A stretch of DNA of 24,583 bases from Thermofilaceae archaeon (GTDB lineage: Archaea > Thermoproteota > Thermoprotei > Thermofilales > Thermofilaceae): assembly GCA_038727095.1 (NCBI GenBank), contig JAVYWK010000027.1:1-24583 (forward strand). The letters are read 5' to 3'. This document shows positions 4,059-24,583 of this stretch, in pieces (position 1 is the stretch's first letter; each line of letters opens with the position of its first letter). The notes beneath the pieces are model-generated. The model made no database searches. It worked only from the letters and a program-made list of their open reading frames with translations, and was not told the origin of the DNA. Position numbers and translations under genes: made by a program.

Positions 4059-4135
4059 ATCCCGCTCACCCAAGTGATTGGTGTCGTGGTATTTAATGCT
4101 TGCTGTAAAAATTCGGAAAATGCATTTGATGTTCT

Positions 4136-7856: not shown

Positions 7857-8516
7857 GTGCTTTGCGCCTCCATTAGGGATCTAGCGGAACGCTATGGGCT
7901 TGTGGTCGTTGAGAAGCCGGGGCGCTTTCGAGAGGAAAGGAACTTCGAGTTGTGGTTGTCCGGGAGCCGTCTTCTCGTGGCGAAGTGCTTCAACGGTAGG
8001 CCTCCCTACTACGCGAGGTGGATCGAGGTTTTCGCCGTCAATAACCATATCGAGACGGGGGAGGGTACCTTCGTTTTCGCGGGCTCAGCCTTAGAGCGCG
8101 AGCTCCTGGAGGCCCTCGCGGGCGAGCTCAAGGGTGGGGAGCTCATGTACATCGAGTACGGCTACGATAAGGAGACGGAGCGCTTGCTGCGCCTCGGCCT
8201 CCCTCCTCACGTGACGAGGTTGGGCTTCCTCCTTCTTCGCAACGGCTTCACGGTTCTGAAGGACTTCTACATCCCCGAGGGCTTCATGGAGGGTGAAGCG
8301 AAGCTGCAGGGGGAGAAACCGGCCAGCGCGGACGATGAGCGGCGGCACCTGGCCAGGATCGTTGAGGAGGTAGAGCGCGCACTCCCCAGCTTGAAGCGTT
8401 GGGCCGGCGAACAGGAGTACAGGTCGTGGATGCTGAGAGCCCTGGAGAGGGCGGAAGCTATACTTCAGGGTCTTGAACCTAAACTTTCATTTACGCGAGG
8501 TTCAGGGAAACTGTGA
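7857..8516 (+). CDS. DUF1122 family protein
   Basis: GRF.EE, F.GRPPYY..W.E, YIEY..D.ET, TRLG, GFT..KDFY.PEG..EG..KLQGEKP motifs. Confidence 0.8.
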   Translation: MLCASIRDLAERYGLVVVEKPGRFREERNFELWLSGSRLLVAKCFNGRPPYYARWIEVFAVNNHIETGEGTFVFAGSALERELLEALAGELKGGELMYIEYGYDKETERLLRLGLPPHVTRLGFLLLRNGFTVLKDFYIPEGFMEGEAKLQGEKPASADDERRHLARIVEEVERALPSLKRWAGEQEYRSWMLRALERAEAILQGLEPKLSFTRGSGKL

Positions 8517-8575
8517 GTAGGAATACTGTACACTCGTGAAGGAAGCTTTATAACACTGTCATTTTCCTCTTCCCT

Positions 8576-8749
8576 GTGGTTGAAGCTGTTGACCCGGTTT
8601 GCGGGATGAAGGTTTCTACGGAGAAAACCCCGCACAAGACCGTCTACAAGGGTAGAGTCTACTATTTCTGCAGCGCTCACTGTAGGAAGGCTTTCGAGGC
8701 CAACCCCGAATTCTACCTTGAGAAGGGGCCCGTGGGCATGCCCGCGTGA
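8576..8749 (+). CDS. copT: YHS/TRASH-domain copper chaperone (CopT-like), 57 aa
   Basis: Absent from the ORF track. Manual translation: MVEAVDPVCGMKVSTEKTPHKTVYKGRVYYFCSAHCRKAFEANPEFYLEKGPVGMPA. TTTATAA ~24 nt upstream; directly before copA. Confidence 0.88.
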   Translation: MVEAVDPVCGMKVSTEKTPHKTVYKGRVYYFCSAHCRKAFEANPEFYLEKGPVGMPA

Positions 8750-8756
8750 TGGAGGA

Positions 8757-11135
8757 ATGGTTAGGGAGAGGGTAAAGGTACTGGGCGTGGATTGCCCAAC
8801 GTGCGTCCTCTCGATACAGAGGGAGCTGTCGAAGCTGGGCGCCCAGATCGAGATCGACGCTTCAACGGGGGACGCTGTGGTGGTGTACGACTCCTCGAGA
8901 GTCACGCTGCGCGACATCGTGAGGGCTGTGAGAGCGGCCGGCTACGACGTTGAGAAGAGGTCGTTGACCCTCTCGGTGGAGTTGAGCGAGGAGGAGGCGT
9001 CGAAGTTCGAGTCCAGCGTCAGCAGGCTGAAGGGTGTGGTTGAGTGCCGATACTCGCCGGTCACGGGGCTGGCCAAGGTGGCGTACAACCCCTACACCGT
9101 CTCGGAGGAGGAGATCCTGTCAGCCGTGAGAGAGTTGGGTTACAGAGCTGAGGTGAGGGTCGGGGAGGTGGAGCACGCCGAGGGGAGGGGTGGGCAGCCC
9201 TGGGTCCCGCTGATCTCCTTCGCGCTGGGACTGACGGCGGTCACCTACCACTTCCTCGAAGCCTTCGAGCTTCTACCCCACGCCCCTGCCGCCTTCTACG
9301 GGGCGCTAGCCTCGATCGTGCTGCTACTCAACGCCAAGCTCGTCTGGAGGGGGTTCAGGGCGCTCACCCGCCTCTCCCCCACGATGGACTCGCTCATCGC
9401 CCTATCCTCGACTGTAGCCTACGCCTCCAGCATCGCTTTCGCATCCACTGGACACGGAGCCGGCTTCTTCGAGGCCGCGGCAGGCGTCCTCGGCTTCGTC
9501 TCAGCCGGCAAGTACCTCGAGGAGAGGTTGAGGAAGCGGGCCCTCAAGGCGTTAAGCGAGCTCGCCGCACTCCAGAGCGGTCGCGCCAGGGTAGTGAGGA
9601 ACGGTAGCGTAGTGGAGGTCGACGTGGAACAGCTGAAGGTTGGAGACCTGGTGGAGGTCCGCGCGGGCGAGAGGATTCCCGTGGACGGGGTAGTCGTGGA
9701 GGGCTGGGGTTACGTCGACGAGTCCGCGTTCACCGGGGAGCCTGTGCCGAGGTTCAAGACCGCGGAGAAGAGGGATCCCGTGCTAGCCGGCACGCTGCTC
9801 ACCTCGGGCTTCCTCCGCGTCTCAGCCACCAGGGTGGGCGGGGATACAACGCTGGCCCACATCATCGAGATCGTCAGGGAGGCTCAGTTCCGGAAGCCCG
9901 GCTTCCAGCGGGCCGCGGACAGGATCGTGGGCCTCCTAACCTGGGTCGTCATGGCGCTGAGCCTGGTCACGTTCGCCTACTGGCTGGCCGCGGGGGAGGG
10001 CCTCGAGAGGGCGGCGCTCTTCGCGGCGTCCGTCCTAGCGGTCACGTGCCCCTGCCCCCTGGGTATCGCAGTCCCCCTGACTGTAGCGGTGGCATCGATG
10101 ATGGCTGCGCGGAGCGGCATTCTAATCAGAGGGGGCGACGTGTTCGAGAGGGTGCGCCGGGTGGACACGGTCGTCTTCGATAAGACCGGCACCTTGACCG
10201 TCGGTGCGCCACGCGTCAGCAGCATCTACCCGCTCAACGGGTTCAGAGAGGAGCTGCTGCTCAGGCTAGCGGGCTCCGCCGAGAGGAGGAGCGAGCACCC
10301 GCTGGCTAAAGCCATCCTGGAGCGCTGCAGGGAGGCGGGCGTTGAGCCGCCCGAGCCGCAGAGCTTCGAGCACGTACCCGGGATGGGCGTAATCGCCGAG
10401 GTCGAGGGGGTAAGGGTTGCCGTTGGCTCGGAGAGGTTGATCGAGGGCGTCACGGGGGCGGCGCTGGATGGGGAGGCGCGGAGGCTGGCTGAGGAGGTGA
10501 GGAGTAGGGGTTCAACAGCGCTATTCGTCGCAGTGGACGGGAGGCTCGCGGGAGTGGTAGAAGTGCGCGACGAGGTCAGAGGGGAGGCGAAGAGGGTCGT
10601 CGCTCGGTTGAGGGAGATGGGCCTCCGGACTGTGCTGGCGACCGGCGACAGCTGGGCTTCGGGAAAGTGGGTTGCCCGAGAGCTCGGCTTGGACGAGGTG
10701 AGAGCTGAGCTCCCACCCGAGGATAAAGCTGAGCTGGTGGAGGACCTACAGAGGCGCGGAGCCAGGGTGATGTTCGTAGGCGACGGGGTCAACGACGCGC
10801 CAGCGCTGGGTAAGGCGTTCGTCGGCGTAGCCGTTGGAAGCGGAGCTGAGATCGCCAGGGAGGCGGGCGATGTAGTGCTGGTCTCGAAGGGCCTCGAGGC
10901 CCTCGTCCACCTGCTGGACCTGGGGAGGAGGGTGGAGAAGAAGGCGCTCGAGAACCTTGCCTGGGCCTTCATCTACAACATCGCGCTCGTCCCAATCGCG
11001 ATGGGCCTCCTCTACCACCAGTACGGCTTGATGCTGAGGCCGGAGATGGCTGCAGCAGCGATGATGCTCAGCGACATCTCCGTCGTCCTCAACGCCCTAT
11101 CCCTGCTCAAATGGAAGCCGGAGCCGCTCACCTGA
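8757..11135 (+). CDS. copA: P1B-type Cu(I)-exporting ATPase
   Basis: GVDCPTC MBD, TGEP, CPC, DKTGTLT, SEHP, GDGVNDAP, YN. Start ATG 8757 after GGAGG rather than 8718. Confidence 0.92.
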   Translation: MVRERVKVLGVDCPTCVLSIQRELSKLGAQIEIDASTGDAVVVYDSSRVTLRDIVRAVRAAGYDVEKRSLTLSVELSEEEASKFESSVSRLKGVVECRYSPVTGLAKVAYNPYTVSEEEILSAVRELGYRAEVRVGEVEHAEGRGGQPWVPLISFALGLTAVTYHFLEAFELLPHAPAAFYGALASIVLLLNAKLVWRGFRALTRLSPTMDSLIALSSTVAYASSIAFASTGHGAGFFEAAAGVLGFVSAGKYLEERLRKRALKALSELAALQSGRARVVRNGSVVEVDVEQLKVGDLVEVRAGERIPVDGVVVEGWGYVDESAFTGEPVPRFKTAEKRDPVLAGTLLTSGFLRVSATRVGGDTTLAHIIEIVREAQFRKPGFQRAADRIVGLLTWVVMALSLVTFAYWLAAGEGLERAALFAASVLAVTCPCPLGIAVPLTVAVASMMAARSGILIRGGDVFERVRRVDTVVFDKTGTLTVGAPRVSSIYPLNGFREELLLRLAGSAERRSEHPLAKAILERCREAGVEPPEPQSFEHVPGMGVIAEVEGVRVAVGSERLIEGVTGAALDGEARRLAEEVRSRGSTALFVAVDGRLAGVVEVRDEVRGEAKRVVARLREMGLRTVLATGDSWASGKWVARELGLDEVRAELPPEDKAELVEDLQRRGARVMFVGDGVNDAPALGKAFVGVAVGSGAEIAREAGDVVLVSKGLEALVHLLDLGRRVEKKALENLAWAFIYNIALVPIAMGLLYHQYGLMLRPEMAAAAMMLSDISVVLNALSLLKWKPEPLT

Positions 11136-11194
11136 TCCAGGCTGCGCGAGCAACGCATTTATGGTAGCACCACTGGTATCACTCAGTGGAACCG

Positions 11195-11452
11195 ATGGTT
11201 AGACTGAGGCTCAAGGTGGGACCGAAGGGGCAGGTTGTCATCCCAAAGGTGCTGAGGGAAAGGTACGGGATCAGAGAGAACGACTACGTCCTCGTGGAGC
11301 TCCGCGAGGACGAGCTGGCGATCAAGAGGGCTGAGAGCGTGGACGAGGTGCTCGGCTGGCTGAAGGCGAGGAAAACCGGCTCCCTTGCGAGGCTGGGCGA
11401 GCTCGCGGGCGTGGATCTGGAGGAGGAGTTCGAGGATGAGGGTGTTCGTTGA
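11195..11452 (+). CDS. vapB: AbrB/MazE/SpoVT-family antitoxin
   Basis: KVGPKGQVVIPK.LRE.YGI..D; acidic tail; overlaps the PIN gene. Confidence 0.88.
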   Translation: MVRLRLKVGPKGQVVIPKVLRERYGIRENDYVLVELREDELAIKRAESVDEVLGWLKARKTGSLARLGELAGVDLEEEFEDEGVR

Positions 11453-11843
11453 CGCCAACCTCCTCGTATACCTCAACGTGGGCCTCCCAGCTGAGGAGGC
11501 AGAGCTGCTCCACTCGTTCTGGGCCCAGCTCTTGAAGAGCCACGACCTATACACGAACGTCCTCGCGCTCGACGAAACCCTCTACGTCTCGAGGAGGCGC
11601 TACGGCGTACCGTACGAAGCCACGATCGAGTTCATCGATAGGGCCGTCATACCCTTCGTGGAGCTGCTACCTCTCGGCTTGGAGGAGTACGCGGCCGCGA
11701 GGAAGTATATCGAGGTCAACGGCTTGAAGCCGTCCGACGCGCTCCACGCGGCAACCGTTGAGGTGCACAAGCTCCACGCGATCGCGAGCGAGGACAGGGA
11801 CTTCGATAAAGCCGGCTTGAAGAGGCTCTGGCTTGAAACCTGA
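11436..11843 (+). CDS. vapC: PIN-domain toxin
   Basis: VFVDAN, DE, PSDALH, SEDRDF acidic PIN residues; ATG 11436 lies inside the antitoxin end. Confidence 0.9.
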   Translation: MRVFVDANLLVYLNVGLPAEEAELLHSFWAQLLKSHDLYTNVLALDETLYVSRRRYGVPYEATIEFIDRAVIPFVELLPLGLEEYAAARKYIEVNGLKPSDALHAATVEVHKLHAIASEDRDFDKAGLKRLWLET

Positions 11844-11864
11844 GCCCGCTCAAGGTGGCGCCCC

Positions 11865-12335
11865 TTGCGGGTTATAGTACGCTGGGCGAGGGACTCCGAC
11901 CTCCCCCGAGCAGCCGAGATCCTGGAGAAGTCGTTCACGGGGAGCTACAGGTACTGGAGCCTCCGGCTCCTCGACGTCCTCGACGTCCTGGTCGCTGAAG
12001 CCGACGGAGTCGTCGCCGGCGTCGCTGAAGTCTACGTGACGAGAGCGAAAGGCTACGGCAGGCTGGGCGTCATCGGATTCGTAGCGGTCGATCCCGCCTA
12101 CAGGCGGAAAGGCATCGGAAGGCGGCTAATTCAGGCTGCAGAGGAGTACTTCGTGGAGCAGGGGTGCAAGTACTCGGCCGCAAGCACCAGGCGCGATAAC
12201 GCAGCTTCAATAAGCCTCTTCTCATCCCTAGGCTACAGGGTGTACGAAAGGGGGAGCAGAGTGTTCGAGGAGCTCGAAGCCCCCCTATACGCCTACGAGG
12301 ATGACGTGGTCTTCCTAAAGAGCCTCCAGGAGTAG
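11865..12335 (+). CDS. GNAT-family N-acetyltransferase
   Basis: VAVDPAYRRKGIGRRLI acetyl-CoA motif; N.A...F..LGY. Confidence 0.88.
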   Translation: MRVIVRWARDSDLPRAAEILEKSFTGSYRYWSLRLLDVLDVLVAEADGVVAGVAEVYVTRAKGYGRLGVIGFVAVDPAYRRKGIGRRLIQAAEEYFVEQGCKYSAASTRRDNAASISLFSSLGYRVYERGSRVFEELEAPLYAYEDDVVFLKSLQE

Positions 12336-12363
12336 GGCTCAAAGGGTCGGACGGCAGCGACCG

Positions 12364-12717
12364 TTAGGCGAGGAGCTCCCTCAACTTCTCAGCTAGCTCC
12401 TTAGGGGTTTTAACTGAAAACATTTTGAAACGTTTCCCGTTGAACTCTTTCGGCAACCCTCGCGGAGGGTTACCCAGGATCGCCACGAAAACCTCCCCTC
12501 TCACATCCATCGACTTAGCCATCTCGAGTAAAGACAGAACGGGGTCAGGAGGTTTGATCGAAACGCAGACTAAGCGATCACGCCTCCGGGCAACGATATC
12601 GAAAGAATGCTTAAGCCCGCTTACACCCTCAACAACGGCGTCATCGAAAACCTCGAAGCCCATACCCTCTAACGCAGCCTTCGCCGCTGAAACGTACTCG
12701 CCTTCAACGTCAAGCAT
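12364..12717 (-). CDS. Small restriction-endonuclease-like (PD-(D/E)xK fold) protein, probably inactive
   Basis: L...GFEV....V.G.SG..H.FDIVA motif; similar to the C-terminal domain of 18071-19003. Confidence 0.55.
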   Translation of the reverse strand: MLDVEGEYVSAAKAALEGMGFEVFDDAVVEGVSGLKHSFDIVARRRDRLVCVSIKPPDPVLSLLEMAKSMDVRGEVFVAILGNPPRGLPKEFNGKRFKMFSVKTPKELAEKLRELLA

Positions 12718-12897
12718 TGTAACGCCCTTCCACTATCCTATTTTAATCTTTATCCTGAAAATGCCTTTGTAAAATTTTAATGCGCTAACCACCCGTACAT
12801 CAATACAGTTTAGATACGCTAGGCCAAGCAGTAACCAAACCGCTCCACTAGAAAACTCCCTATAATGCTAAAAGGAATGCTCGAGTAATCGCGCGAC

Positions 12898-13308
12898 TCA
12901 ACCGGTAAAGAGCTTTTCCACAAAGCTCCAGCAGTTACCCCTAGCGCTGCAAACCTTCACCACAAGCTGCGGAGCACACTGCCTGCCCGTCGCTATAGTT
13001 CTACGCTCCCCCGGGGCAACGTAGAGCGAACCGCTCCAAACCAAGCTCTCGTTAAAGTAGACGGATACGATACGCACACCGATATCACCCGTGCACGTTA
13101 CATCAACCTCAAGAAACCCGTTACGGCAGCGAACCAGCTCCACGACAACCCTCTCCCTCGCAGCCTCCCGAGCAGCTTGAGCCGACTCGATAAACCTCCT
13201 CTCCCACCACAAGTACCTAGGGTAAAGCCAAACCCATAAGACCGCGAAACCACCCACTACAACCAGCGTTGTAAGCAGCACAGCAACAACTTCAGCCTCC
13301 CCCCTCAT
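12898..13308 (-). CDS. Minor type IV pilin-like protein
   Basis: MRG|EAEVVAVLL hydrophobic helix (class III-like signal); ERVVVE..VDV.C.G...V.I.SVY.N pilin beta motif. Confidence 0.7.
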   Translation of the reverse strand: MRGEAEVVAVLLTTLVVVGGFAVLWVWLYPRYLWWERRFIESAQAAREAARERVVVELVRCRNGFLEVDVTCTGDIGVRIVSVYFNESLVWSGSLYVAPGERRTIATGRQCAPQLVVKVCSARGNCWSFVEKLFTG

Positions 13309-13446
13309 CCAGCCGCAACCAGTTCGAGGCGCCTCCTTAAAGCAGTTACGGTGATCAACCCCGCGATCCTCAACTATTACAGAGCGGGAGCGAGCTGGGA
13401 AGCATTAAACACCTATAAGACCGGCCGATAGCTAAGCGGGGTTACA

Positions 13447-14097
13447 GTGGAGAAGATCTTCGCTGAGAAAGTGATGGAGTGGTACAAGAGCAACAGGAGA
13501 AGCTTCCCATGGCGGGTTGGAATGAGCAGCGAGTGGATCACAGCCCTCACAGCCATCCTCCTGAGGAAGACGAGAGCCGAAACCGTCGCCAAGCACTACG
13601 AGAGAATCATCAAGGCACTAGAAACGCCCGAGCGCGCCCTCCAACTCAAAATCGAGGAGATCGAGGAACTCCTCAAACCACTCGGCCTCCACAAAACCAG
13701 AGCCAGGCAGATCCGCCAGCTCGCGGAAGCCTGGGGCAAGAGTGAAAAACTGCCGGGGCTAGGCCCCTACGCGCGCTCCCTCATCGATTGCCTCCACAAG
13801 CGCAAGCTCGTAGCCGTGGTCGACGTCAACACCGCACGCGTAGCATCCAGGTTCTTCGGAGTCGACAGAGGGAAAGTCGAGGAAGCGCTCCAGAAAGCAG
13901 TAGAGGCAGCGGGTACCTGTGAAATCAACCTCGCGATAATGGACTTCGCGGCAAAAATCTGCGCACCCCGAAAACCAAAGTGTGGTAAATGCACTTTAGC
14001 GGAAAACTGCGCACACCGAAGGCGGACGACCTCAGTACCGAATCCCGTTACAAGCGGGATGATTGTGAACTCTTACACCTCATCACGCAGGTTCTAA
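13447..14097 (+). CDS. mig: HhH-GPD DNA glycosylase, MIG (T/U:G mismatch)-like, with [4Fe-4S] motif
   Basis: WY...RR.FPWR, LLRKT (MIG type rather than MutY LQQT), LPGLGPY with Tyr at the lyase-Lys position, VDVN, Cx6Cx2Cx5C. Confidence 0.75.
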   Translation: MEKIFAEKVMEWYKSNRRSFPWRVGMSSEWITALTAILLRKTRAETVAKHYERIIKALETPERALQLKIEEIEELLKPLGLHKTRARQIRQLAEAWGKSEKLPGLGPYARSLIDCLHKRKLVAVVDVNTARVASRFFGVDRGKVEEALQKAVEAAGTCEINLAIMDFAAKICAPRKPKCGKCTLAENCAHRRRTTSVPNPVTSGMIVNSYTSSRRF

Positions 14098-14150
14098 ACA
14101 AGAAAAGCTCCCAGGGGTTAATTCTAAAAAGAAATTTTAACTTTAACTCC
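14098..14150. terminator. AT-rich terminator region between convergent glycosylase and pilin genes
   Basis: A-tracts on + (T-tracts for the pilin) and T-tracts on + for the glycosylase. Confidence 0.45.
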
Positions 14151-14573
14151 TTAACCCTTGGTGAAGGAGTATGTTGCTTCCACACCTTTACTTGTGACAA
14201 CCTTCGCTATGTAAGTCGTACCCGTGACCAAATTACAATTAGAAACTGAGACGTAACCTGCAGTACCTCTGGAAATATTTTTATTGGGAGCTGAACTACA
14301 CACAGCCGTCTTGTTCTCAAAGAGAACATATGCACTAGCTATGGTAACATCAACATCACCTATATTCGTAACGTTTATGTCTACTCTAGCACCAGTTACT
14401 TTAACGGCGTCGATTTTGATTCTTTCTTGTAGCTGGGAGGCTTGGCCTTCGGCTTGGCTGGTTACTCTGCCCATGTATCCTGAGACCCAGATGTAGGCTA
14501 GTACTGCTGCGACGACGGCGATTACGATTAGGAGCAGTGTGGCGATTACCGGGCTTACACCTCTCCTTTTCAT
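14151..14573 (-). CDS. Probable major archaeal type IV pilin
   Basis: MKRRG|VSPVIATLLLIVIAVVAAVLAYIW canonical class III signal; V.N.G motif, KVVT..G; sequons NVT, NKT, NIS; own BRE/TATA-like promoter at ~14603-14620. Confidence 0.92.
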   Translation of the reverse strand: MKRRGVSPVIATLLLIVIAVVAAVLAYIWVSGYMGRVTSQAEGQASQLQERIKIDAVKVTGARVDINVTNIGDVDVTIASAYVLFENKTAVCSSAPNKNISRGTAGYVSVSNCNLVTGTTYIAKVVTSKGVEATYSFTKG

Positions 14574-14715
14574 GTTTCTCGTACATAAGTGTTAGAATGA
14601 GCTTATTTATTTTTATCGCTTGATAAGCCTGCCCTCTGCTTTCGACTGTTGTGATTTTTAAGGGCTCAGTTTTCCATGCTTAAGGGGATTATCTAAGAGT
14701 AGAGTTCTGTAAAAG

Positions 14716-16500
14716 CTATGAACCGTAAGTGTATTCGTCTCCTCCAACAATTTCGGTGAAGGCTCTCTCGATGACTACGCTACCGGTGGAGTCTTTCACG
14801 ACGATCCCCGCGTTTACCACGATAAGGTCGGTGACTACTGTAACCCGTGCGACGCCGCTCGCGTCAGCTACGGCACTGCCGATTAAGGTGCCACCCGAGT
14901 ATAACTCCACCCTCCAGCCCTGCTCTAGACCCGTGACTTGAATGTGACGTGGGTCTACGCTCGAGATGATGAAGTTGTCGAAGTAGCCTGCGTCCCTGTC
15001 TACTATCAACGAGGCACGCTCCGGCGTGAAACCGCTAATGCTGGTGCTCAGCTGCGCTATAAGGGTGCCAGTAGAATCGTAAACACATGCTACTAGCGTG
15101 GACGAACTCCACTCGATAACGATCGTGTACCATCCACTTCCTGTAGGGGTAAACCTACTTACCACTCGAGTTCTCCATCTTCTTCCATCGTAGTAATCTA
15201 TTCTGAATCCGCTATCTCTACCTCTGTAGTCTAGGTTGGCTGAATAGATGTTAACGGGAGAGGTGATTTTCGCAATAGCGAGCCCCAATCGATCGGGTTG
15301 ATAAGTGTCTGCGAGAACCTGTACCGCTAAGTATGCTGCGCCGAATGGTATTTCTCTGTGGAAGAGAGATGCACCACCTGGGCCACCGTCGTTGTCGCTA
15401 CCTTGAAGCGCATTTGTGCTTCTGCGACCCTTACCGGCCTCTATCGTCCAGCTTCCACCCCAGCTGGTCCAACCGCTGGGCGTAGTTTCGAAAGCTGTGT
15501 AATGTAACGCATTCCTCTTTGTCAGGTAGAGGTCTTTGGCCTCGATAGTGAAGGTTTTCTCATCGTCCGTTTCGCCGGTTGCCGTGTTGACCGCGATTAC
15601 ACGCCACGTGTACTCCCCCCGGGTGGATGGCAGCTTCAATGCGAACTGAAGGGTTTTTGCTTCGCCTGGCTGCAGTTCTACTTCGCTCTCGGATACGACT
15701 CCGCCATCATGGTTGAGGATTCTAACTTGGACTGTACCAGCCACCCCTCCCACGTTCTTTACCTCCGTGTTGAAGGTTTGGTCGGATCCTACGGGCCCTG
15801 AGATTTTGCTGTTCCAAGAGGTTATCCGGAAGCTCGGGCTACCCTGCTGCTTTTCGAAAACTGCTGTTAAGCTCGTATCATCGTTCACCGTTATGCTGAT
15901 GCTGGCGTCGCTCGAGTAATACTCACCGTTGACCAGCCAGTAGAGGAAGAGGTAACCCTCGTTGGGGATCGCAGTGACACTAAATATGCCGCCGACCTGT
16001 ATCTCGTATTCACCAGGCTCAGGATCTGTTGTTCCACCCCCTTCGGGTTCAACAGCGATCCACACCTTCACTTTTCTATGTTGCGCTGCGACCCATGTGA
16101 GGGTGGTTGTTGCTTCTACACCGGTTGTGGTTACGAGCTTGAGAGTGTAGGTGCCTGGGCTCAACTGGACTTCTACTTCGATGCTTGCGTCTTCTCCCGG
16201 CTCGAGCTCAACTGAAAAGCCCGTGTCAGCGAAGACGGTTGTGCGATCCTGTCTCAGGATGTAGAGGGCGGTGATTGTGCTTGTTCTTGAGCCCACGTTG
16301 CGCACTGCTACGTGGAGCCTACCGTTGCTGTACCTGCTCGCCTCTATCTTCAACACCTCGCTTAACGGGCTCGGCTCTGAAACTTGTTTTATCGTGCTCA
16401 TGTAGCTGGTTACCCACACGTATGTGATGATCGAGGCTACAACAGATATGGCTACAAGGATGAGCACTGCTGCGAGGGGCGCAATACCCTTTCCAACCAT
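14716..16500 (-). CDS. Large pilin-adhesin (pilin domain plus multiple extracellular beta domains)
   Basis: Start ATG 16500: MVGKG|IAPLAAVLILVAISVVASIITYVW; pilin head; InlB-B-repeat-like (VTAIPNEGY.F..W..NG..LTAVF), CARDB/Ig-like and lectin-like regions; TTATATAA at 16530-16537. Confidence 0.8.
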   Translation of the reverse strand: MVGKGIAPLAAVLILVAISVVASIITYVWVTSYMSTIKQVSEPSPLSEVLKIEASRYSNGRLHVAVRNVGSRTSTITALYILRQDRTTVFADTGFSVELEPGEDASIEVEVQLSPGTYTLKLVTTTGVEATTTLTWVAAQHRKVKVWIAVEPEGGGTTDPEPGEYEIQVGGIFSVTAIPNEGYLFLYWLVNGEYYSSDASISITVNDDTSLTAVFEKQQGSPSFRITSWNSKISGPVGSDQTFNTEVKNVGGVAGTVQVRILNHDGGVVSESEVELQPGEAKTLQFALKLPSTRGEYTWRVIAVNTATGETDDEKTFTIEAKDLYLTKRNALHYTAFETTPSGWTSWGGSWTIEAGKGRRSTNALQGSDNDGGPGGASLFHREIPFGAAYLAVQVLADTYQPDRLGLAIAKITSPVNIYSANLDYRGRDSGFRIDYYDGRRWRTRVVSRFTPTGSGWYTIVIEWSSSTLVACVYDSTGTLIAQLSTSISGFTPERASLIVDRDAGYFDNFIISSVDPRHIQVTGLEQGWRVELYSGGTLIGSAVADASGVARVTVVTDLIVVNAGIVVKDSTGSVVIERAFTEIVGGDEYTYGS

Positions 16501-16660
16501 ACTAACTGAGGATAATGTAATTTCACGCCTTATATAATTACTTACTGAATTAACCGTCAAAAGTTACTACCCGATGACTCGAGAACATGTGAACCTTTCA
16601 TGCGAGCTTAGATCCTGTTTTCAACGGCTGGATTTTTATAGCAATGTTCTTCTCTTACAC

Positions 16661-18007
16661 GTGGCTCGCGGGATTTCGACTGTGATCGGCGCTCTCCTCT
16701 TCCTTCTCGTAGCATCGTTACTGCTTGCGCTCGCGCTAAGGGCGTTCAATGAGACCGTGCTGGCTCTCAATGAGGTGACCAATAATCAGAGAGCTGGGGT
16801 AGAGCATCTGGATATCGATATCGATTACATGGCGTGGAAACAGAGCCTGGCGAGCAGCGTTATCTCACGGATTAATGTCACTAAAGGGGTATCATCTGAT
16901 ACCCGCCCGGAGCTTCTCGACTACCCGGATGGGAATTCGATTATTATCGAGTCGGAGGCCGATATGACTACGGGTAGCGTGCCACCCGCGTCGGGTTGGG
17001 TCGAGTTGATAAAGAACGGGGAATTCAATGATGATTTTCAGTATTGGACCCCATCGACCGATTTGTGCAGTTGGAGTATAATAACCGTCGGTGGCGACAA
17101 GAAAGCGAGGTGCTTTTGCCGAGCTACTGGTACTGGAAGTGTTTCAGCGTTCATCCAGCAATCCTTCAACCTAGACTTTCCCGCTGCGATGGCTGTTCTT
17201 TCCTTCGAGTACAATAGTAGTATTTCGAAAAAAGGAGAGTCACTGGTCTTCTTTCTCGTGGTTGAAGTTTCGCGCGGCGGCAGGCCTGTGTGGTACTGGT
17301 TTATAGATCTGATGGCGCCAGGGAGGCAGGAGGGGCGTCTGACGCTAAGCTTGACAGGTGCTGTAACAGACCCAGGTTTATACACGCTCAATTTTTCTCT
17401 GCTCATGGCATGGAAGGGTACCACTGACTTCGTATTCACGCTGGATAAGGTTAGTTTGAGAGCTTCTGGGCAGGCTCCGCCACCGCCGCAGCCGATCGCC
17501 TATCATCAGCTCTTGTTCGTCGTTGATACTGTGAGCACTTTGCCGCGCTTTAACGGGCGATTGACTGTGAGCACTAATGCAACAGTGTCCATCGAACTGT
17601 ACCGCTGGCGTGATGGTGGGTGGGTTCTCGTTGAGAAGGGTGTTGTGCCAGCGGGTTCATTTTATCTGGTTGGTTTCGAAGGTGAAGGGGGTACGCAGTT
17701 CCTCGTCATAGCTTACTCGTCTGAACCCTTCAAGCTGGTATTGGACTACTTCGAGGTAATGGTGCTTGCTCCAACCCATGCAAGCGTGAAAGTGACGAAT
17801 TTGGGCACGGAACCCGTAGACGTGTACGCCGTCTGGCTTCGCAACTCATCGTGGGAGAAGAGGGTTGATGTTAAGAGCGTCTTGCTGCCGAACGATTCCC
17901 TCGAGATTAACTTCGATACGTACCTCAGCTTGTACAGGTTGTACGAGGTTAGGGTCGTTACCGGTACTCGTACTCACATAGTCAGGCTTACCCCGTCTGG
18001 CGGGTAG
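16661..18007 (+). CDS. Large pilin-like protein with internal beta-sandwich/CBM-like insertion
   Basis: Start GTG 16661: MARG|ISTVIGALLFLLVASLLLAL; TTTTATA ~21 nt upstream; LIKNGEF....W CBM-like start; C-terminal V.N.G...V..VW...VRVVT pilin strands. Confidence 0.72.
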   Translation: MARGISTVIGALLFLLVASLLLALALRAFNETVLALNEVTNNQRAGVEHLDIDIDYMAWKQSLASSVISRINVTKGVSSDTRPELLDYPDGNSIIIESEADMTTGSVPPASGWVELIKNGEFNDDFQYWTPSTDLCSWSIITVGGDKKARCFCRATGTGSVSAFIQQSFNLDFPAAMAVLSFEYNSSISKKGESLVFFLVVEVSRGGRPVWYWFIDLMAPGRQEGRLTLSLTGAVTDPGLYTLNFSLLMAWKGTTDFVFTLDKVSLRASGQAPPPPQPIAYHQLLFVVDTVSTLPRFNGRLTVSTNATVSIELYRWRDGGWVLVEKGVVPAGSFYLVGFEGEGGTQFLVIAYSSEPFKLVLDYFEVMVLAPTHASVKVTNLGTEPVDVYAVWLRNSSWEKRVDVKSVLLPNDSLEINFDTYLSLYRLYEVRVVTGTRTHIVRLTPSGG

Positions 18008-18070
18008 CAATTATGATTGAGGTGCAGGTTAACTGAGGCAGTCGGTTGCGTGCCAGCTGGCTGAGCTCCG

Positions 18071-19003
18071 TTAACCCCTTTTCTTAGCCTTCAGCTTTTC
18101 AAGTATTTGCGCGAGTCTTTCTTGGAGGTCTTTAGCGCTTTCGTAGTAGGTGATGTTGCTTCCCATGCCGCTGGGCGCGCTTTTCTCAAGGCTTTTGGGC
18201 GCGAAGACGATGTGCCGATCTTCGAAGTCGGCCTCCTTCGCGATGCTTGCGAGCACTTCGCTTAGAGCTCTGGACGAATCGGCGACAATATCCACGTACA
18301 TCTTGGTTCCATCGCTGGTCGAGGCGGCAATATCCACGCTATGGTAGTACCCGCTTTTCCCCTTCACTTGGGTCGAGCTTGCGACTTTCAACCCCGCAGC
18401 TGCGATCTCTCTGCTAGCGATTGCAACCAGCAGCTGCTTAGCCGTTTCCGGCAGCTTCTCCTTCCTAATCCTGAACCTGTAGATGTTAGTGTAGCGTGCC
18501 TGCTTGTAGTCGAACGTTAGCTTGCAATCAGCGCACCTCCAGGAGGGGAGGGGGGTTTCAAACCTGGCTCCGCAGTTTAAGCACTGGTAGAGGGTTCCGA
18601 TGGTTCTGGCATCCTGCAGGGGTTTCCCGCACTTGGAGCAGTTGGGCAGTTTTTCTGCTTCCTCTACAACGTTTACTCCCCCGCAAGTTACGTGCGCCAG
18701 GATGAGCATTCGTCTCAAGCTCTCCGAGCCGCAGTTGGGGCAGTGAAGCTTACTGAAGAGCCGTAGAGAACCGCAGTTCGGGCACACTACGATGCTCTCG
18801 TGGGGCTCTCTCTCGAGAACGCCTAACAGGATGAGCTCCTCCAGAGCTTCCTTCTCGGAGATTCCGTACCTGGCTGTGATCTTGAGTATGAGGGGGTAGA
18901 TTACGCCGGTGCTGTGGGAAATGCTAGGTTCTATGACGTCCAGGTTGGATGCTGCTATCTCTCGGAGGACTTCGTGGAGAGCGATGTTCCTATCCCGGCT
19001 CAT
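18071..19003 (-). CDS. TackOD1-like multi-Zn-ribbon protein with C-terminal REase-like domain
   Basis: G..YP plus wHTH-like segment, then CPNC, CPNC, HVTC, CSKC, CLNC, CADC; C-term VKGKSGYYHSVDI. Start ATG 19003 or GTG 19012. Confidence 0.7.
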   Translation of the reverse strand: MSRDRNIALHEVLREIAASNLDVIEPSISHSTGVIYPLILKITARYGISEKEALEELILLGVLEREPHESIVVCPNCGSLRLFSKLHCPNCGSESLRRMLILAHVTCGGVNVVEEAEKLPNCSKCGKPLQDARTIGTLYQCLNCGARFETPLPSWRCADCKLTFDYKQARYTNIYRFRIRKEKLPETAKQLLVAIASREIAAAGLKVASSTQVKGKSGYYHSVDIAASTSDGTKMYVDIVADSSRALSEVLASIAKEADFEDRHIVFAPKSLEKSAPSGMGSNITYYESAKDLQERLAQILEKLKAKKRG

Positions 19004-19035
19004 TCCCTCCACTCTAACACATATGTATTCGTGAG

Positions 19036-19046
19036 TTATTTATATT
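19036..19046. promoter_or_regulatory. Shared TATA element of divergent genes
   Basis: TTATTTATATT lies ~22-28 nt from both GTG 19066 (+) and GTG 19012 (-). Confidence 0.55.
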
Positions 19047-19065
19047 GGTTACTAATCGCTCAGCT

Positions 19066-20574
19066 GTGGTTGCAGAGGAAGCTGCAGTCTCAACCTACAT
19101 CCCCGAGAGTGAAGCGATTGTCGAGCTGTACGAGGTTTCACCACCCTTCGCCTACGCCGTCATTACGAGGGATAGGAGGACGGGGCGGATGCTATACAGG
19201 GTGCTGGAGCCGATCTTGACGCCGCAGGAGATGAAAGCCTTGGCAGAGGTAAAAAGGCTGCTGCTTGAGAGCCAGAGGCCGGCTCTCGATGAGCTCAGGA
19301 GGAGGGGGGTGGAGGAGGTTTTGAGGGGGAGAGTGAGAGATGTCGTGAGGAAGTTTAAGCTTCCCGTGGGCGAGGATGCTTTCGATAAGCTGTTCTACTA
19401 CGTGAGGAGAGATATGCTCGGATACGGGCCCATCGACGTCCTGATCAGGGATCCGAGGATAGAGGACATAAGCTGTGACGGTGTCGGAGCTCCAATCTAC
19501 GTGTGGCACAGCAGGTTTGAATCGCTGCCGACCAATATCGTGTTCAGCAGCCCCGAGGAGCTCGAATCGATCGTCGTGAGGCTCTCCCATAAAGCGGGGA
19601 AGCACATATCCGTTGCAAACCCGCTCGTCGAGGGTTCCCTGCCTGAGGGTTACAGGCTGCATGCAACTCTCTCAGAGGTCTCGAGGAGGGGTGGCACTTT
19701 CACCATCAGGAAGTTCAGGGAGATCCCCTTCTCGATCGTCGACCTTGTGAGGCTTGGAACCGTTTCGCTCGAGCTTGCAGCGTACCTCTGGCTTCTCGTT
19801 GAGGCGAGGAAGAGCCTAATGATCGTGGGGGCCACGGCCAGTGGTAAGACCACGACTTTGAACGCGGTGGCAACCTTTATCCGACCCGAGGCTAAGATCG
19901 TGACGATCGAGGAGACGCCCGAGCTCAACCTGCCGCACGAGAACTGGGTTCCGCTGGTGGCTAGGCCCTCCGTGGATCCGTGGGCTAGGAGCGTATCCCT
20001 GTTCGACCTGCTGAAGTCGGCGCTTAGGATGAGGCCCGACTACATAATCGTGGGGGAAGTGAGGGGGGAGGAGGCTTTCACGCTCTTCCAGGCTATCGCT
20101 ACGGGGCACGCGGGGATGTGCACGATGCACGCTGAGAACGTTGAGTACGCTGTGAAGCGGCTCGTGTCGGAGCCCATGAACGTCCCTTCCTTCCTGATCC
20201 CGCTGATGAACGTGATGCTGACCATCAAGAGGGTTCAAGTGGGGGAGGCGGTAGTTAGAAGAGTGGTAGAGGTTCGCGAGGTGTTTTCGGGTGAAAACGG
20301 GTTTGAGGGCCACGTGGTTTTCAGGTACAACCCGTTTTCAAACAGGATCGAGAGGGTGAGCGAGAGTAAGCTCCTGCCCGCCATCGCTGAGGAACGCTTC
20401 ATCCCGATGAGCGAGCTCGCGGAGGAGATCGAGAGGAGGCAAACCGTGCTGCGCTTCCTTCTGGAGAGGGGTATCACAGACTACGCGAGGGTTAGCAGGG
20501 TTGTCAGGGACTACGCGTTGAGGCCCGCGGCTGTCTACACGGCGATCGAAAGAGGGCTCTACGATTTGCGCTAG
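19066..20574 (+). CDS. Type IV pilus assembly ATPase (PilB/FlaI/AapE family)
   Basis: Walker A GATASGKTT, Asp box IEETPEL, Walker B IIVGEVRG, His box TGH...TMHA, IEDISCDG. Confidence 0.95.
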   Translation: MVAEEAAVSTYIPESEAIVELYEVSPPFAYAVITRDRRTGRMLYRVLEPILTPQEMKALAEVKRLLLESQRPALDELRRRGVEEVLRGRVRDVVRKFKLPVGEDAFDKLFYYVRRDMLGYGPIDVLIRDPRIEDISCDGVGAPIYVWHSRFESLPTNIVFSSPEELESIVVRLSHKAGKHISVANPLVEGSLPEGYRLHATLSEVSRRGGTFTIRKFREIPFSIVDLVRLGTVSLELAAYLWLLVEARKSLMIVGATASGKTTTLNAVATFIRPEAKIVTIEETPELNLPHENWVPLVARPSVDPWARSVSLFDLLKSALRMRPDYIIVGEVRGEEAFTLFQAIATGHAGMCTMHAENVEYAVKRLVSEPMNVPSFLIPLMNVMLTIKRVQVGEAVVRRVVEVREVFSGENGFEGHVVFRYNPFSNRIERVSESKLLPAIAEERFIPMSELAEEIERRQTVLRFLLERGITDYARVSRVVRDYALRPAAVYTAIERGLYDLR

Positions 20575-20585
20575 CGGGTGGTATA

Positions 20586-21443
20586 GTGGCTCCGGGATGG
20601 GTTCTAAACCTCGCTAAGCGCTTGAGCGAAAAAGCTGGGGTCTTCAAGGAAATCTACTATACGGCCGGCTTCGAGGAGCCTTTCGAATCCTACTTGGGGA
20701 AGTGGCTGATAGCCTACATCGCTTTGACACCGGCTATTACCGCCTTCCTGGTCTACCTCCACGGGTTAGTGCTCAAGTACCCCTTGCTCTTCACAATCAT
20801 ATTGACAGCTATTGTCCTGGTCATCTACACACTGCTTTTCACGTTCCTCCTCCTCTACTACCCCGTGTACAGGAGGTACTCCAGGGGGGTCGGTATCGAC
20901 TCGCGGCTACCCTACACCATCGCCTACTTCGCTGCTCTAGCATCATCCGGGATGGGTCTTGAAGCGATCGTTGAGAGGGTTGCCGAAGTCGAGGAGGTGA
21001 AGGCGACGAGGAGGGAGCTCGAGTTGTTCTTAACGGAGGTTAAGCTCCTAGGCTTGGACGTGCTGTCGGCTCTCGATAGGAGGTCAAGGGCAAGCCCCTC
21101 GATCCTGCTCTCCCTCTTCTTCTCGGGTCTCAGGGACGCTTACATTACGGCGGGCAACCTGTACGAGTACGCGGCCTTCATGGCCCGACGCTTGCTCGAG
21201 ATGAAGAGGAACGAGTTGAGGAACATCGTGAACTCCATCTCGATGGTGGCTGAGATGTACGTCACGCTGATGGTTGCTGCACCGTTAATGTTCGTCGTGA
21301 TGCTCGCAGTGATAGCGATGATGGGTGGAGCCGTGGGGGGTTTGCCGCCGCAACTGCTAATCGCGCTCATACTTGTGGTGGGCATCCCAGCGTCCGCCGC
21401 AGCTACGCTCGTCATACTGGATGGCATACTCTCGAAGGTTTAA
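20586..21443 (+). CDS. T2SS-F/TadC-like pilus membrane platform protein
   Basis: ID.RLP.....A.L..SG, G.D...AL......PS; multiple TM helices; follows the ATPase. Confidence 0.88.
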   Translation: MAPGWVLNLAKRLSEKAGVFKEIYYTAGFEEPFESYLGKWLIAYIALTPAITAFLVYLHGLVLKYPLLFTIILTAIVLVIYTLLFTFLLLYYPVYRRYSRGVGIDSRLPYTIAYFAALASSGMGLEAIVERVAEVEEVKATRRELELFLTEVKLLGLDVLSALDRRSRASPSILLSLFFSGLRDAYITAGNLYEYAAFMARRLLEMKRNELRNIVNSISMVAEMYVTLMVAAPLMFVVMLAVIAMMGGAVGGLPPQLLIALILVVGIPASAAATLVILDGILSKV

Positions 21444-21568
21444 CGACTCTGTTGTGAGCGAATCCCTTTAGATTTACCGGAGTGAAGAAAGGCACAGTGT
21501 TGAGGCTTGCTGAAAACTGAGGCTTGTAGCTCGATGAGCGATAGTGTTTTAGACTTGAATGCTGTGCT

Positions 21569-22507
21569 TTGGCAAAGACTGGTGGGGGGGTCTTGCCTTA
21601 CGTTGAGGTGAAGGGGGGCGTCAAGGCTCTGCTAGCAGCATTATCCATAGCGCTAGCCGTTGTACCTGCGGCATTAGCTATTGCTCTGCTCAGCTCTCGC
21701 GAGCTCGTTACGGTGGAGATTGCGCCCGGCCTTACGCTCGCTTGGGCTAGCGACGTGTACTTCCTCTTCTCCCTGTCGGCTGCGGCAGCTATCACCCCTT
21801 ACGCGGCGGTCAGCTTCATGAACAGGAGGTACGTTGAAGCGATTGAGAGGCGTTTACCGGCTTTCTTCGAGGGGGTGGAGGAGGGCGTTCGCGCCGGCAT
21901 GCCCCTGGTTAGAGCGGTGGAGACAGCGGCCAAATCCGTTGGGGGGCCCTTAGCGAGCGAGATGCTTACTGTTGTAAGCAGGGTGGAGCTCGGCGATACG
22001 TTCGAGGGTGCTCTCGAGGGGCTTGTGAAGCGGATTCCAGCGCCGGCTTTGAAGAGGGCGGTCAGCCTTCTGCTCGTCGCCTACCAGAGCGGGGGTAGGG
22101 TGGGGGAGGTTCTGGGTGCTGCAGCTGAGATGTATGGGCTGCTGAGGAGCTACGAGGAGGAGAGGAGGGCTACGATGGCCCCGTACGCCTACGCCATCTA
22201 CGTTTCGCTGATTGTTTTCCTGCTTGTAGCCACGATCCTTCTGCTAGTTTTCATTGCTCCGTTGGAAGCGCTCGGCAGGGAAGCTGCGCAGCTTTTAACA
22301 CCTCTTCCCCCTCCACTCTTCAAGGCGACGTTCTTCATGGCTGCGGCTATACAAGCGTTCGTCGGCGGCTTAGTCGCCGGCAAGATCAGCAGGGGTACTG
22401 TTAAAGCCGGGCTCCCCCAAGCTGTGGGCATGCTCGTCGCTGTTGCAGCCTACTTCCACCTATTGGAAGTATTTTTGGAACCTGCTTTCACCATACCGCC
22501 CGGTTAG
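21569..22507 (+). CDS. Second T2SS-F/TadC-like platform protein
   Basis: IE.RLP.F......RAGMP, GPL..E, G.....AL, SGG, GL.AGKI..G....G. Start may be TTG 21593 after a GGTGG SD. Confidence 0.88.
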   Translation: MAKTGGGVLPYVEVKGGVKALLAALSIALAVVPAALAIALLSSRELVTVEIAPGLTLAWASDVYFLFSLSAAAAITPYAAVSFMNRRYVEAIERRLPAFFEGVEEGVRAGMPLVRAVETAAKSVGGPLASEMLTVVSRVELGDTFEGALEGLVKRIPAPALKRAVSLLLVAYQSGGRVGEVLGAAAEMYGLLRSYEEERRATMAPYAYAIYVSLIVFLLVATILLLVFIAPLEALGREAAQLLTPLPPPLFKATFFMAAAIQAFVGGLVAGKISRGTVKAGLPQAVGMLVAVAAYFHLLEVFLEPAFTIPPG

Positions 22508-22589
22508 TTCAAAGGATCCAAAGAGCATTTTCAGCCATCTGTTCATCTGGAAAGATACTTTTAAAAAATCAGTAATAGTAGCCGTAAAC

Positions 22590-22796
22590 ATGTCCTCGAG
22601 TCTGGAAAGGCTAGAGAGAGCATTCAGAAGGCTCCCTAACCTAGTACACTCCGTGGACAGCCTTGAACTCTCCATCCTTCTGCTTAAAGCGACCTTAGAA
22701 GTAGCAGTTTTCGCTGCTCTCCTCTACCTAGTGGGCGAGGTAGTAAATGGGTTGTGGAGCTTAGCCCATAGCATTACGGGAGTCTTCCTCCCTTAG
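22590..22796 (+). CDS. Small hypothetical membrane protein (68 aa)
   Basis: ATG 22590 with TTTTAAAA ~23 nt upstream; hydrophobic C-terminal half. Confidence 0.55.
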   Translation: MSSSLERLERAFRRLPNLVHSVDSLELSILLLKATLEVAVFAALLYLVGEVVNGLWSLAHSITGVFLP

Positions 22797-22849
22797 GTTG
22801 AAGGTTTCCGAATACCCTACAGGCTTCCAGGAACCGAGGGTTACTCGTG

Positions 22850-23212
22850 TTATTGTTGAGTCCTTTTCAGCCACTCCTCGACTATATCCACGCCGTACAG
22901 CTCCTTGATCCTCCTCCTCCCCTCCTCCGTCATCCTGAGAGGGGTCCACGGTGGATCCCAGACGACCTCTACGTCGACCTCTTTGACCTCTGGCAGCTCG
23001 GTTCTGATTGCGTCCTCGACCATTGCCGGCATGAAGGCGGAGATCGGGCAGCCTGGTGCCGTCAGCGTCATCTTCACCTCAACTCGCTCCCCCTCGATCC
23101 GTAGGTCGTAGATCAGGCCCAGGTCGTAAATGTTGACCGGTATCTCAGGGTCGTAGACCTTTCGTAGAGCCTCTATGACCTTCTCCCTCGTGGTCACAGT
23201 TGACGCTGTCAA
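22850..23212 (-). CDS. DUF59 (SufT/PaaD-like) metal-sulfur cluster assembly factor
   Basis: VYDPEIPVNIYDLGLIY, MTLTAPGCP, VWDPPWTP..M. Confidence 0.92.
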   Translation of the reverse strand: MTASTVTTREKVIEALRKVYDPEIPVNIYDLGLIYDLRIEGERVEVKMTLTAPGCPISAFMPAMVEDAIRTELPEVKEVDVEVVWDPPWTPLRMTEEGRRRIKELYGVDIVEEWLKRTQQ

Positions 23213-23330
23213 TACTCGGTTTTTATGCCTTTCGCGCCCCGATGCGAGGACCGCGTGGCCGCTTTTACGCTGAAGGCCGTTGATTCAGCGGCATGCTTAT
23301 CAGCGGTCGAGCGGAGGGCACAGGGCGCTT

Positions 23331-23894: not shown

Positions 23895-23898
23895 GAGT

Positions 23899-24582: not shown

Positions 24583-24583
24583 C

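Follow-up and report, generated by a model that had tools for sequence, protein, structure and literature searches.

Strand skew reverses at the major pilin gene of a strain-variable type IV pilus island in a Thermofilaceae archaeon

In a 24,583-nucleotide contig of a Thermofilaceae archaeon (JAVYWK010000027.1), the base composition of the two DNA strands reverses at the major pilin gene of a type IV pilus locus, and this flip is the largest in the genome. It is a composite boundary and not one process with two arms. On its left lies a strong, strand-specific patch of 2.7-3 kb that is peculiar to this lineage, and on its right a mild plateau over a pilus island that other strains lack. The cause of the patch that we tentatively favor, at a probability of about 35%, is deamination of a DNA strand that becomes exposed as transcription runs on past the pilin gene.

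The contig, analyzed whole and called the window below, belongs to a 52-contig, 1.86-Mb genome bin of 92% completeness (G000). It was compared with related genomes, denoted below by G numbers, among which G015 is complete. Genes were called with our own simple scorer of open reading frames (ORFs) instead of a standard annotation. Strand skew is expressed as keto skew, G+T-A-C on the plus strand at the 4-fold degenerate sites of each gene ("keto4"); on the coding strand, it has a mean of 0.047 and a standard deviation (SD) of 0.13 across the 1591 genes of G000. Parts of the region are present as contigs in 20 hot-spring metagenome runs from nine studies. Three DNA runs (X1, X2, and X4, from three studies) and one RNA run (X19) were aligned on 8000-24583, as contigs only, with a single depth figure per contig.

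The flip and its two sides

A preliminary description of this DNA, made from its letters alone, held that skew reverses at the pilin whatever the direction of the genes. At 4-fold sites, this is borne out as a local effect independent of orientation. The five genes at 11385-14097 (+ + - - +) have plus-strand keto4 values of -0.19, -0.34, -0.43, -0.62, and -0.44, and the five at 14151-20574 (- - + - +) have values of +0.17, +0.14, +0.24, +0.15, and +0.25. The left run is the most extreme of the 1178 mixed-orientation five-gene runs in G000, and the boundary 14097|14151 ranks first among 1393 gene boundaries at K=3 and first among 1203 at K=5 (6.7 SD). At 14.0-14.4 kb, where the description had placed its proposed check, the cusp at 4-fold sites is significant and the largest in the genome. 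Keto bases occupy 116 of the 391 4-fold sites of the patch on the plus strand (z=-8.0). The 20 consecutive 50-codon bins between 11447 and 14412 all have negative values, and the bin that follows stands at +0.76. The spacers between genes carry the sign of their own side, with keto skews of -0.18, -0.14, and -0.21 on the left and +0.23, +0.21, +0.12, and +0.18 on the right.

The hand counts behind that description prove exact. The minus-strand gene at 12898-13308 has G/T-ending codons at 48 of its first 60 positions, and the major pilin has A/C at the third position of 46 of its 51 codons 6-56, and T at none. The tilts it named elsewhere are also confirmed: 143 of 216 codons end in A/C in the glycosylase gene and 191 of 313 in the zinc-ribbon gene, and 270 of 448 end in G/T in the gene at 16661. 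Its two-sided picture holds only in part. The change of sign is real, but raw composition is strongly negative at 12.0-14.1 kb only and positive on both sides of it, so that the composition is that of a strong patch beside a mild plateau and not of two symmetric arms. Similar flips elsewhere, which the description had counted as a point against its reading, do occur to some extent: flips of the same polarity of at least 2.3 SD lie at 11 distinct sites of G000.

A lineage-specific patch on the left

According to Pfam matches, the window carries housekeeping genes on its left, followed by VapBC, a GNAT acetyltransferase, two small minus-strand genes, an HhH-GPD glycosylase, the type IV pilus locus, and an iron-sulfur (FeS)-assembly gene. 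The features in and beside the patch are as follows.

11186-11452, plus strand: VapB-type antitoxin gene (MazE/AbrB fold; Pfam PF04014, E 3e-9), just outside the skewed patch
11385-11843, plus strand: VapC (PIN) toxin gene (Pfam PF01850, E 1e-15), the first gene of the patch
11445-14048: strand-skewed patch, with an A/C-rich plus strand and a T/G-rich minus (pilin-sense) strand, covering five genes of both orientations and three spacers
11865-12335, plus strand: GNAT acetyltransferase gene (Pfam PF00583, E 1e-19)
12364-12717, minus strand: small gene encoding, as a separate protein, a paralogue of the C-terminal domain of the TackOD1 protein encoded at 18071-19012 (BLASTP, 26% identity, E 3e-5)
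12898-13308, minus strand: minor pilin-like gene, a distant relative of the major pilin (BLASTP, E 1e-6)
13447-14097, plus strand: HhH-GPD DNA glycosylase gene (Pfam PF00730, E 2e-16), the last 16 codons of which are island DNA

The patch is genuine, strand specific, and lineage specific. All five of its genes are more skewed than each orthologue examined. The glycosylase, at -0.44, compares with -0.20, -0.19, -0.06, +0.03, and +0.01 in five orthologues; the GNAT gene, at -0.34, with -0.01, -0.07, and -0.15 in three; and VapC, at -0.19, with +0.23 and -0.10. On the coding strand, the minor pilin stands at +0.62, the second highest value among the 1591 genes of G000, compared to -0.07, +0.48, and -0.10 in its orthologues, and the small gene at 12364-12717 stands at +0.43 compared to +0.17 in G003. 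Patch genes minus orthologues leave residuals of -0.25 to -0.42 on the plus strand. The skew also fades with distance, since residuals going away from the 3' end of the pilin gene run -0.49, -0.57, -0.38, -0.39, and -0.24, and then -0.11. The three genes closest to the pilin have a GC content at third codon positions (GC3) of 0.59-0.69, compared to 0.72-0.85 farther left.

The bases involved point to a type of damage. The 4-fold sites of the patch hold A111, C164, G90, and T26 on the plus strand, which on the pilin-sense strand amounts to T111 vs A26 (4.3:1) and G164 vs C90 (1.8:1). Deamination of C and A on the minus strand would be expected to leave such an excess of T and G there, and deamination of these two bases in single-stranded DNA is described as a cause of keto skew (PMC3269012).

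Two simpler causes were considered and rejected. Codon bias linked to expression fails since the ribosomal-protein and elongation factor (EF) genes of G000 are not A/C-biased. An inversion of the patch is ruled out for the GNAT gene, the small gene, and the minor pilin, which lie in identical order and orientation in G003, beside a P-type ATPase. In G001 and G010, the minor and major pilin genes are immediate neighbors. The products of 12364-12717 and 18071-19012 both come from pilus-locus genes without a known role.

A pilus island that varies between strains

14049-22631: type IV pilus island, 8.6 kb, carried by the window and missing from a form that occurs in three metagenomes
14151-14573, minus strand: major pilin gene, with a class III signal-peptide motif and weak Pfam Pilin_N and Arch_flagellin matches
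14151-14396, minus strand: variable C-terminal coding part of the major pilin, T/A-ending and of low GC3 (codons 57 to end: T37, A19, C16, G12)
14397-14573, minus strand: N-terminal coding part of the major pilin, which is conserved and specifies the class III signal peptide and the hydrophobic helix; its codons are A/C-ending and avoid T
14574-14715, minus strand: AT-rich spacer upstream of the pilin (GC 0.37, keto +0.23), with a TATA-like stretch, rich in A/T, some 30-45 bases ahead of the start codon
14716-16560, minus strand: gene for a large pilin-like surface protein of 614 residues, with a class III signal peptide and InlB B-repeat and CARDB domains
16574-18007, plus strand: further pilin-like gene, whose class III signal peptide fits a start at 16661; no Pfam family found
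18071-19012, minus strand: TackOD1/zinc-ribbon protein gene (Pfam PF18551, E 9e-23)
19045-20574, plus strand: PilB3-type secretion ATPase gene (Pfam PF00437, E 2e-35, plus PilB3_C)
20586-21443 and 21569-22507, plus strand: two TadC-like membrane platform genes (Pfam PF00482 for both)
22850-23212, minus strand: FeS-assembly protein gene (Pfam PF01883), the right chromosomal flank of the island

With a PilB-type ATPase, a TadC-like platform, and class III signal-peptide pilins (motifs found by a scan of the genes at 14151, 14716, and 16661), 14049-22631 can be classed from its sequence as an archaeal type IV pilus locus. The TATA-like stretch upstream of the pilin is a candidate promoter.

This locus is a strain-variable island inserted at the very 3' end of the glycosylase gene. 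Contigs of X1, X2, and X4 join 14048 directly to 22632, skipping 8583 bases, and no letters are shared at the joint. In G004, the GNAT, glycosylase, and FeS genes are consecutive, with no pilus genes between them. The glycosylase frame runs 16 codons into the island in the window and, across the island-less joint, meets a stop 4 codons later. In X2 and X4, summed contig depth falls to roughly half over the island, which hints at strains without it. A misassembly is unlikely because the island-less and island-bearing forms are both natural variants; among the contigs listed, none is shown bridging 14048 in the island-bearing form. As for the usual hallmarks of island ends, there is no transfer RNA (tRNA) gene in the window, no integrase among the Pfam results, and no repeat shared at the joint.

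The major pilin gene sits at the edge of this island, pointing outwards, and its C-terminal half differs between strains. Contigs of X2 and X4 match the window up to 14030 and again from 14396/7. The bin 14083-14635 has the lowest summed contig depth in all three DNA runs, while the DNA of the N-terminal part at 14397-14573 matches many relatives. The breakpoint thus falls at the boundary between conserved and variable parts, about 15 bases from the flip in codon usage within the gene. Strains also vary farther inside the island, with a 15-base insertion behind 17584 in one run and 112 bases at 18007-18120 swapped for 128 other letters in three.

These forms, island-less in three runs and rejoined from 14030 to 14396/7 in two, support the part of the preliminary description that made the pilin a site of exchange. 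The polarity of the flip is also the one expected for synthesis, or for 3'-tailed imported DNA, running outwards from the pilin. Its further claim, that the skew is the footprint of exchange, fares poorly: one side is far stronger than the other, the bias of the pilin head is conserved in 12 of 12 orthologues, the bias on the right is mostly intrinsic to the genes, and silent cassettes are lacking. A tblastn search of G000 with the full pilin, as a test for silent partial copies, gives only N-terminal matches, all in full-length pilin genes.

Bias that belongs to the genes: the right side and the pilin head

The G/T-rich right side is mostly a conserved, gene-specific synonymous bias of genes that happen to lie on opposite strands here. 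Across genomes, the ATPase gene is G/T-rich on its sense strand, and the pilin and TackOD1 genes are A/C-rich on theirs, an opposition seen in most genera; the coding keto4 of the ATPase exceeds that of TackOD1 by at least 0.2 in six of eight genomes. Where pilin and ATPase share a strand, the difference persists (-0.20 vs +0.20 in G010 and -0.36 vs -0.01 in G022). Once the orthologue mean is subtracted, about 0 to +0.29 remains in the island genes, with a mean near +0.1.

The flip inside the pilin gene, at about codon 57, is likewise a conserved property of that gene. The first 52 codons after the signal motif are A/C-ending and T-poor in all 12 orthologues, which represent at least eight genera, with third-position skews (keto3) of -0.04 to -0.77 and 0-11 T-ending codons of the 52. 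The remainder of the gene is T-rich and of low GC3. A plausible reason for the bias of the head would be the avoidance of T runs where codons carry T in second place. In two sets of loci, the pilin's own bias is negative at 12 of 14 and at 9 of 10.

Strand skew elsewhere in the genome and in a complete relative

Skew of the kind that separates replichores was looked for in G000 and rejected, as the keto4 of opposite-orientation neighbors is uncorrelated (r=-0.009). After removal of the mean coding bias, the neighbor correlation is 0.08, or 0.04 without the contig of the window, and the means of large contigs are near zero. In G015, strand-based skew is real, with r=0.41 between opposite-orientation neighbors and strong domains spanning 10-30 kb. 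The skew of spacers follows the 4-fold skew of flanking genes with r=0.58 in G015 (n=634) and r=0.30 in G000 (n=613). Sharp up-flips outnumber down-flips in both genomes, at 24 vs 0 positions beyond 3 SD in G015 and at 11 vs 4 distinct sites in G000. Another large up-flip of G000 lies at the edge of an island encoding large, putatively DUF1156/DUF499-like proteins.

Some of these flips coincide with elements of the kind found at archaeal origins. A scan for origin recognition box (ORB) elements reveals three ORB-like ones in a 420-base spacer of contig C7 of G000 (32172-32591), which sits on a flip of the same polarity but smaller size (2.7 SD), with five genes at -0.16 on the left and six at +0.07 to +0.15 on the right. 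This spacer is likely a chromosomal replication origin of G000. In G015, an ORF-free, AT-rich gap at 695343-696295 holds three ORB-like elements and lies on the largest flip at K=5. A second ORF-free, AT-rich gap of that genome, at 210143-210904 (GC 0.34), also lies on one of the largest flips and has no ORB-like elements. The only RNA gene at the G015 flips is one tRNA, at 799 kb. For Thermofilum adornatum, a preprint gives four origins predicted by Ori-Finder2 and says that they need validation (10.1101/2021.04.30.439615).

Two other stretches stand out. Contig C28 of G000 is skewed alike over all of its 21.7 kb, whichever way its genes point (mean residual -0.145, t -3.9), and it could be a mobile element or the neighbor of an origin. 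In G015, 648254-654330 has extreme A/C-ending codons (keto4 down to -0.96) and Q-rich products, lies beside a 1.2-kb gap, and looks like foreign DNA.

Read-through transcription as a possible cause of the patch

An excess of G+T on the non-template strand is an established signature of transcription-associated mutation. Under the reading that we favor, transcripts from a strong pilin promoter would leak past the T-tract that follows the pilin stop codon (TTTCTTTTT, sense strand). They would then cross the glycosylase gene in antisense, the minor pilin and the small gene in their own orientation, and finally the GNAT and VapC genes, again in antisense. Read-through along this path would make the minus strand the non-template strand throughout the patch; repeatedly single-stranded, it would gather a footprint of C to T and A to G deamination. 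If such read-through is assumed, the G+T excess lies on the non-template strand across 11445-14150 and is opposite in the first 56 codons of the pilin, where selection on the codons of the pilin itself would mask the effect of deamination. Further runs of five T (T5) on the pilin-sense strand occur only at 13953 and 13745, and there are none from there to 8000. In the RNA run, contigs of low depth cover 12.4-14.6 kb, and no contig covers 10.2-12.4 kb; neither strand nor level can be read from contigs. Read-through explains the one-sidedness of the skew, its decay, its sign, the involvement of antisense genes and spacers, and the position of the strong arm downstream of the pilin at other strong loci.

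These other loci were compared with two measures, D and U, which are the mean orientation-corrected keto residuals, on the pilin-sense strand, of the three genes downstream and the three genes upstream of a pilin. Both were picked after the pattern had been seen, so the small probabilities that they suggest are to be discounted. At four of ten pilin loci of G000 and G015, D is in the top 1.5% of all genes (the window at 14151, contig C10 of G000 at 43625, and G015 at 202821 and 1296130), and at three of these four it is far greater than U. At C10 43625, the affected genes downstream of the pilin, three in all, lie antisense to it. This C10 region (41617-46021) holds a second pair of PilB3-type ATPase and pilin, and the second largest flip of G000 (K=3) lies at the 3' end of its pilin; the three genes that follow it were assigned to no Pfam family. 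D was positive at 11 of 13 loci in a first sample, which had been collected by DNA similarity to the window and in which some loci are mutually syntenic. A comparison of the pilin's own bias with the difference between D and U was discarded, as it merely restates the excess of up-flips.

A number of observations weigh against read-through. The bias of the pilin head is opposite to the one predicted, so that selection has to be brought in as an added assumption. The left edge of the patch is abrupt, with a third-position bin of +0.36 in VapB (11296-11444) next to one of -0.36 in VapC; a termination signal was sought there and dismissed, as the minus strand has no T5 run at that edge. Contigs of all three DNA runs stop at 11274, and one contig is unlike the window beyond 11443. 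The X19 contigs are of low depth and from a different strain. At hold-out loci from other genomes with at least two downstream genes, D is positive at only four of seven, with a mean near zero. Ten controls presumed to be highly expressed (five Alba, three thermosome, EF-1alpha, and EF-2) show no downstream skew effect, their D-U percentiles ranging from 6 to 85 with a median near 24. Pilin read-through also leaves the excess of up-flips unexplained and, if the island arrived recently, there would have been too little time for the skew to build in place.

Alternative explanations

The patch could instead be an imported block, about 11445-14048 and perhaps to 14396, recombined in from a strongly skewed lineage or element. 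In that case, nothing would be acting on it now, and the flip would be a joint between two DNA histories. Its abrupt left edge would then be expected, as would the strain-level breakpoints or contig ends at 11274 and 11443, beside the left edge, and at 14030 and 14048, beside the right. Patch genes are as close to genus g7 as to genomes of the same genus, the glycosylase being 66.7% identical to that of G004, 66.0% to G018, and 65.2% to G021, and the VapBC part has its best DNA match in G020. Skew of like size occurs in G015 over its 10-30 kb domains; the flip at the edge of the other G000 island is a comparable case, and horizontal transfer of archaeal pilus loci is documented (PMC4858521). 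Gene order makes an imported block doubtful: the order of GNAT, small gene, and minor pilin is common to G003 and that of GNAT and glycosylase to G004, so the block would need to be a replacement allele whose donor was a close relative, strongly skewed and unsampled, and no sampled genome exceeds 74% DNA identity to the patch. A random mosaic also predicts equal numbers of up-flips and down-flips, unlike those seen in either genome. Import also leaves unexplained that, at other strong loci, it is the downstream side of the pilin that is strong.

The skew could also be written by recombination itself, a more specific form of the idea in the preliminary description. Here, the C-terminal cassette of the pilin and the island would be repeatedly swapped by imported DNA, and deaminated 3' tails or outward-made strands would build an origin-like flip around the variable piece. 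Exchange is directly evidenced at exactly the pilin spot. The polarity fits as well, since by our derivation a linear fragment resected at both ends has its minus strand single-stranded on the left flank and its plus strand on the right, whereas a chromosomal break resected inwards gives the opposite sign. Such a process would explain why up-flips are in excess and why they lie at island edges, and its independence of expression level agrees with the negative result for highly expressed controls. We nevertheless consider it unlikely, because it predicts two comparable arms: the orthologue-corrected right side amounts to about +0.1, against -0.25 to -0.42 on the left, and the far chromosomal flank (22850-24408) reaches only +0.12, +0.13, and -0.02. 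The strong arm is the downstream one at other strong loci, the seven hold-out loci show no mean effect, and the search for silent cassettes, recombinase genes, inverted repeats, and sequence shared at the island joint found none.

A broader proposal, quite unlikely in our judgment, is that variable surface-filament genes and island edges of this family are repeatedly single-stranded with outward polarity and that heat-driven deamination writes origin-like flips there that are not origins. Replacement by imported DNA, recombination-dependent synthesis, or R-loop-primed synthesis could each lead to such single-strandedness. This would explain both the excess of up-flips and the extreme values at four of ten pilin loci.

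Last, a replication origin or fixed initiation zone at 14.1-14.7 kb, which the preliminary description had raised in calling the skew origin-like, shares its polarity with the ORB-bearing spacers of C7 and G015, has a right plateau (+0.2 over about 8 kb) like the arm of the likely C7 origin (about 8 kb), and lies where the GC content of the contig is lowest, but it is very improbable, as the window has no origin features, the spacers measure just 53 and 142 bases, the entire right arm is an island that some strains lack and whose bias is largely intrinsic to its genes, the arms are very unequal, and G000 has no skew on the scale of replichores. The search for such features covered the ORB core, absent from the window as a G015-derived 13-mer at two or fewer mismatches and near the flip as 9-mer cores at one or fewer, and repeats, of which a search of the window found none of note. 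It also covered orc1/cdc6, since the Cdc6_C domain model matches only C1:40771 and C12:20278 in G000 and nothing on the contig of the window. Pfam scans of 26 ORFs of the window found no initiator gene, with no search specific to WhiP.

Comparison with known systems

The patch resembles the transcription-associated asymmetry of bacteria and vertebrates in that T and G are in excess on the would-be non-template strand, spacers and genes of both orientations are affected, and the effect fades with distance. The known cases concern the transcribed gene itself, whereas here the head of the gene is opposite and the footprint would lie in the presumed read-through zone. A literature search aimed at an archaeal case of such asymmetry found none.

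The flips of Orc1/Cdc6-ORB origins, as read by Z-curve and Ori-Finder methods, are alike in sign (as on C7 and in G015) and in AT-richness; the flip in the window differs in having no ORB elements or initiator gene, in its unequal arms, and in that one arm is a dispensable island. The deamination gradient of the displaced strand in vertebrate mitochondria (PMC3269012) is another likeness, with C-to-T and A-to-G changes on one strand and, as a result, a G/T-rich and an A/C-rich strand. That gradient covers a whole replicon, and the patch is a 3-kb piece of chromosome.

Bacterial systems for varying pilins include gene conversion between pilE and pilS in Neisseria and pilin inversion in Moraxella. 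In these systems, as here, a conserved N-terminal part is joined to a variable C-terminal part with a breakpoint at the boundary. The locus differs from them in that the genome has no silent partial copies, the window has no invertase or inverted repeats, and the variation is between strains instead of within a cell. No paper was found that ties pilin genes to local strand skew, although no literature search was aimed exactly at that link. In Sulfolobus islandicus, loss of pilin genes is reported to confer resistance to viruses (PMC7217056). Pilus genes are thus present or absent in a natural archaeal population there as well; in the present case, it is the whole 8.6-kb locus that comes and goes.

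Other features of the window

Far to the left, the gene at 3018-4073 encodes a rubrerythrin/EncFtn-like N-terminal part fused with an encapsulin (Linocin_M18) shell domain, and a small rubrerythrin-like gene (2538-3014) adjoins it.

What the flip means

Skew flips are widely used to call archaeal origins. In this genome, the strongest flip is very probably not an origin and the likely ORB-bearing origin is a weaker one, so origin calls based on skew only can mislead in such genomes. If the footprint of read-through is true, the patch would be a kilobase-scale record of transcription-linked deamination in a hyperthermophile. If the link to recombination is true instead, skew could be used to find hot spots of exchange. 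For the biology of the organism, the locus is a natural presence/absence polymorphism of a whole pilus system, combined with allelic replacement of the exposed half of its pilin, and both would be expected under pressure from viruses or competitors.

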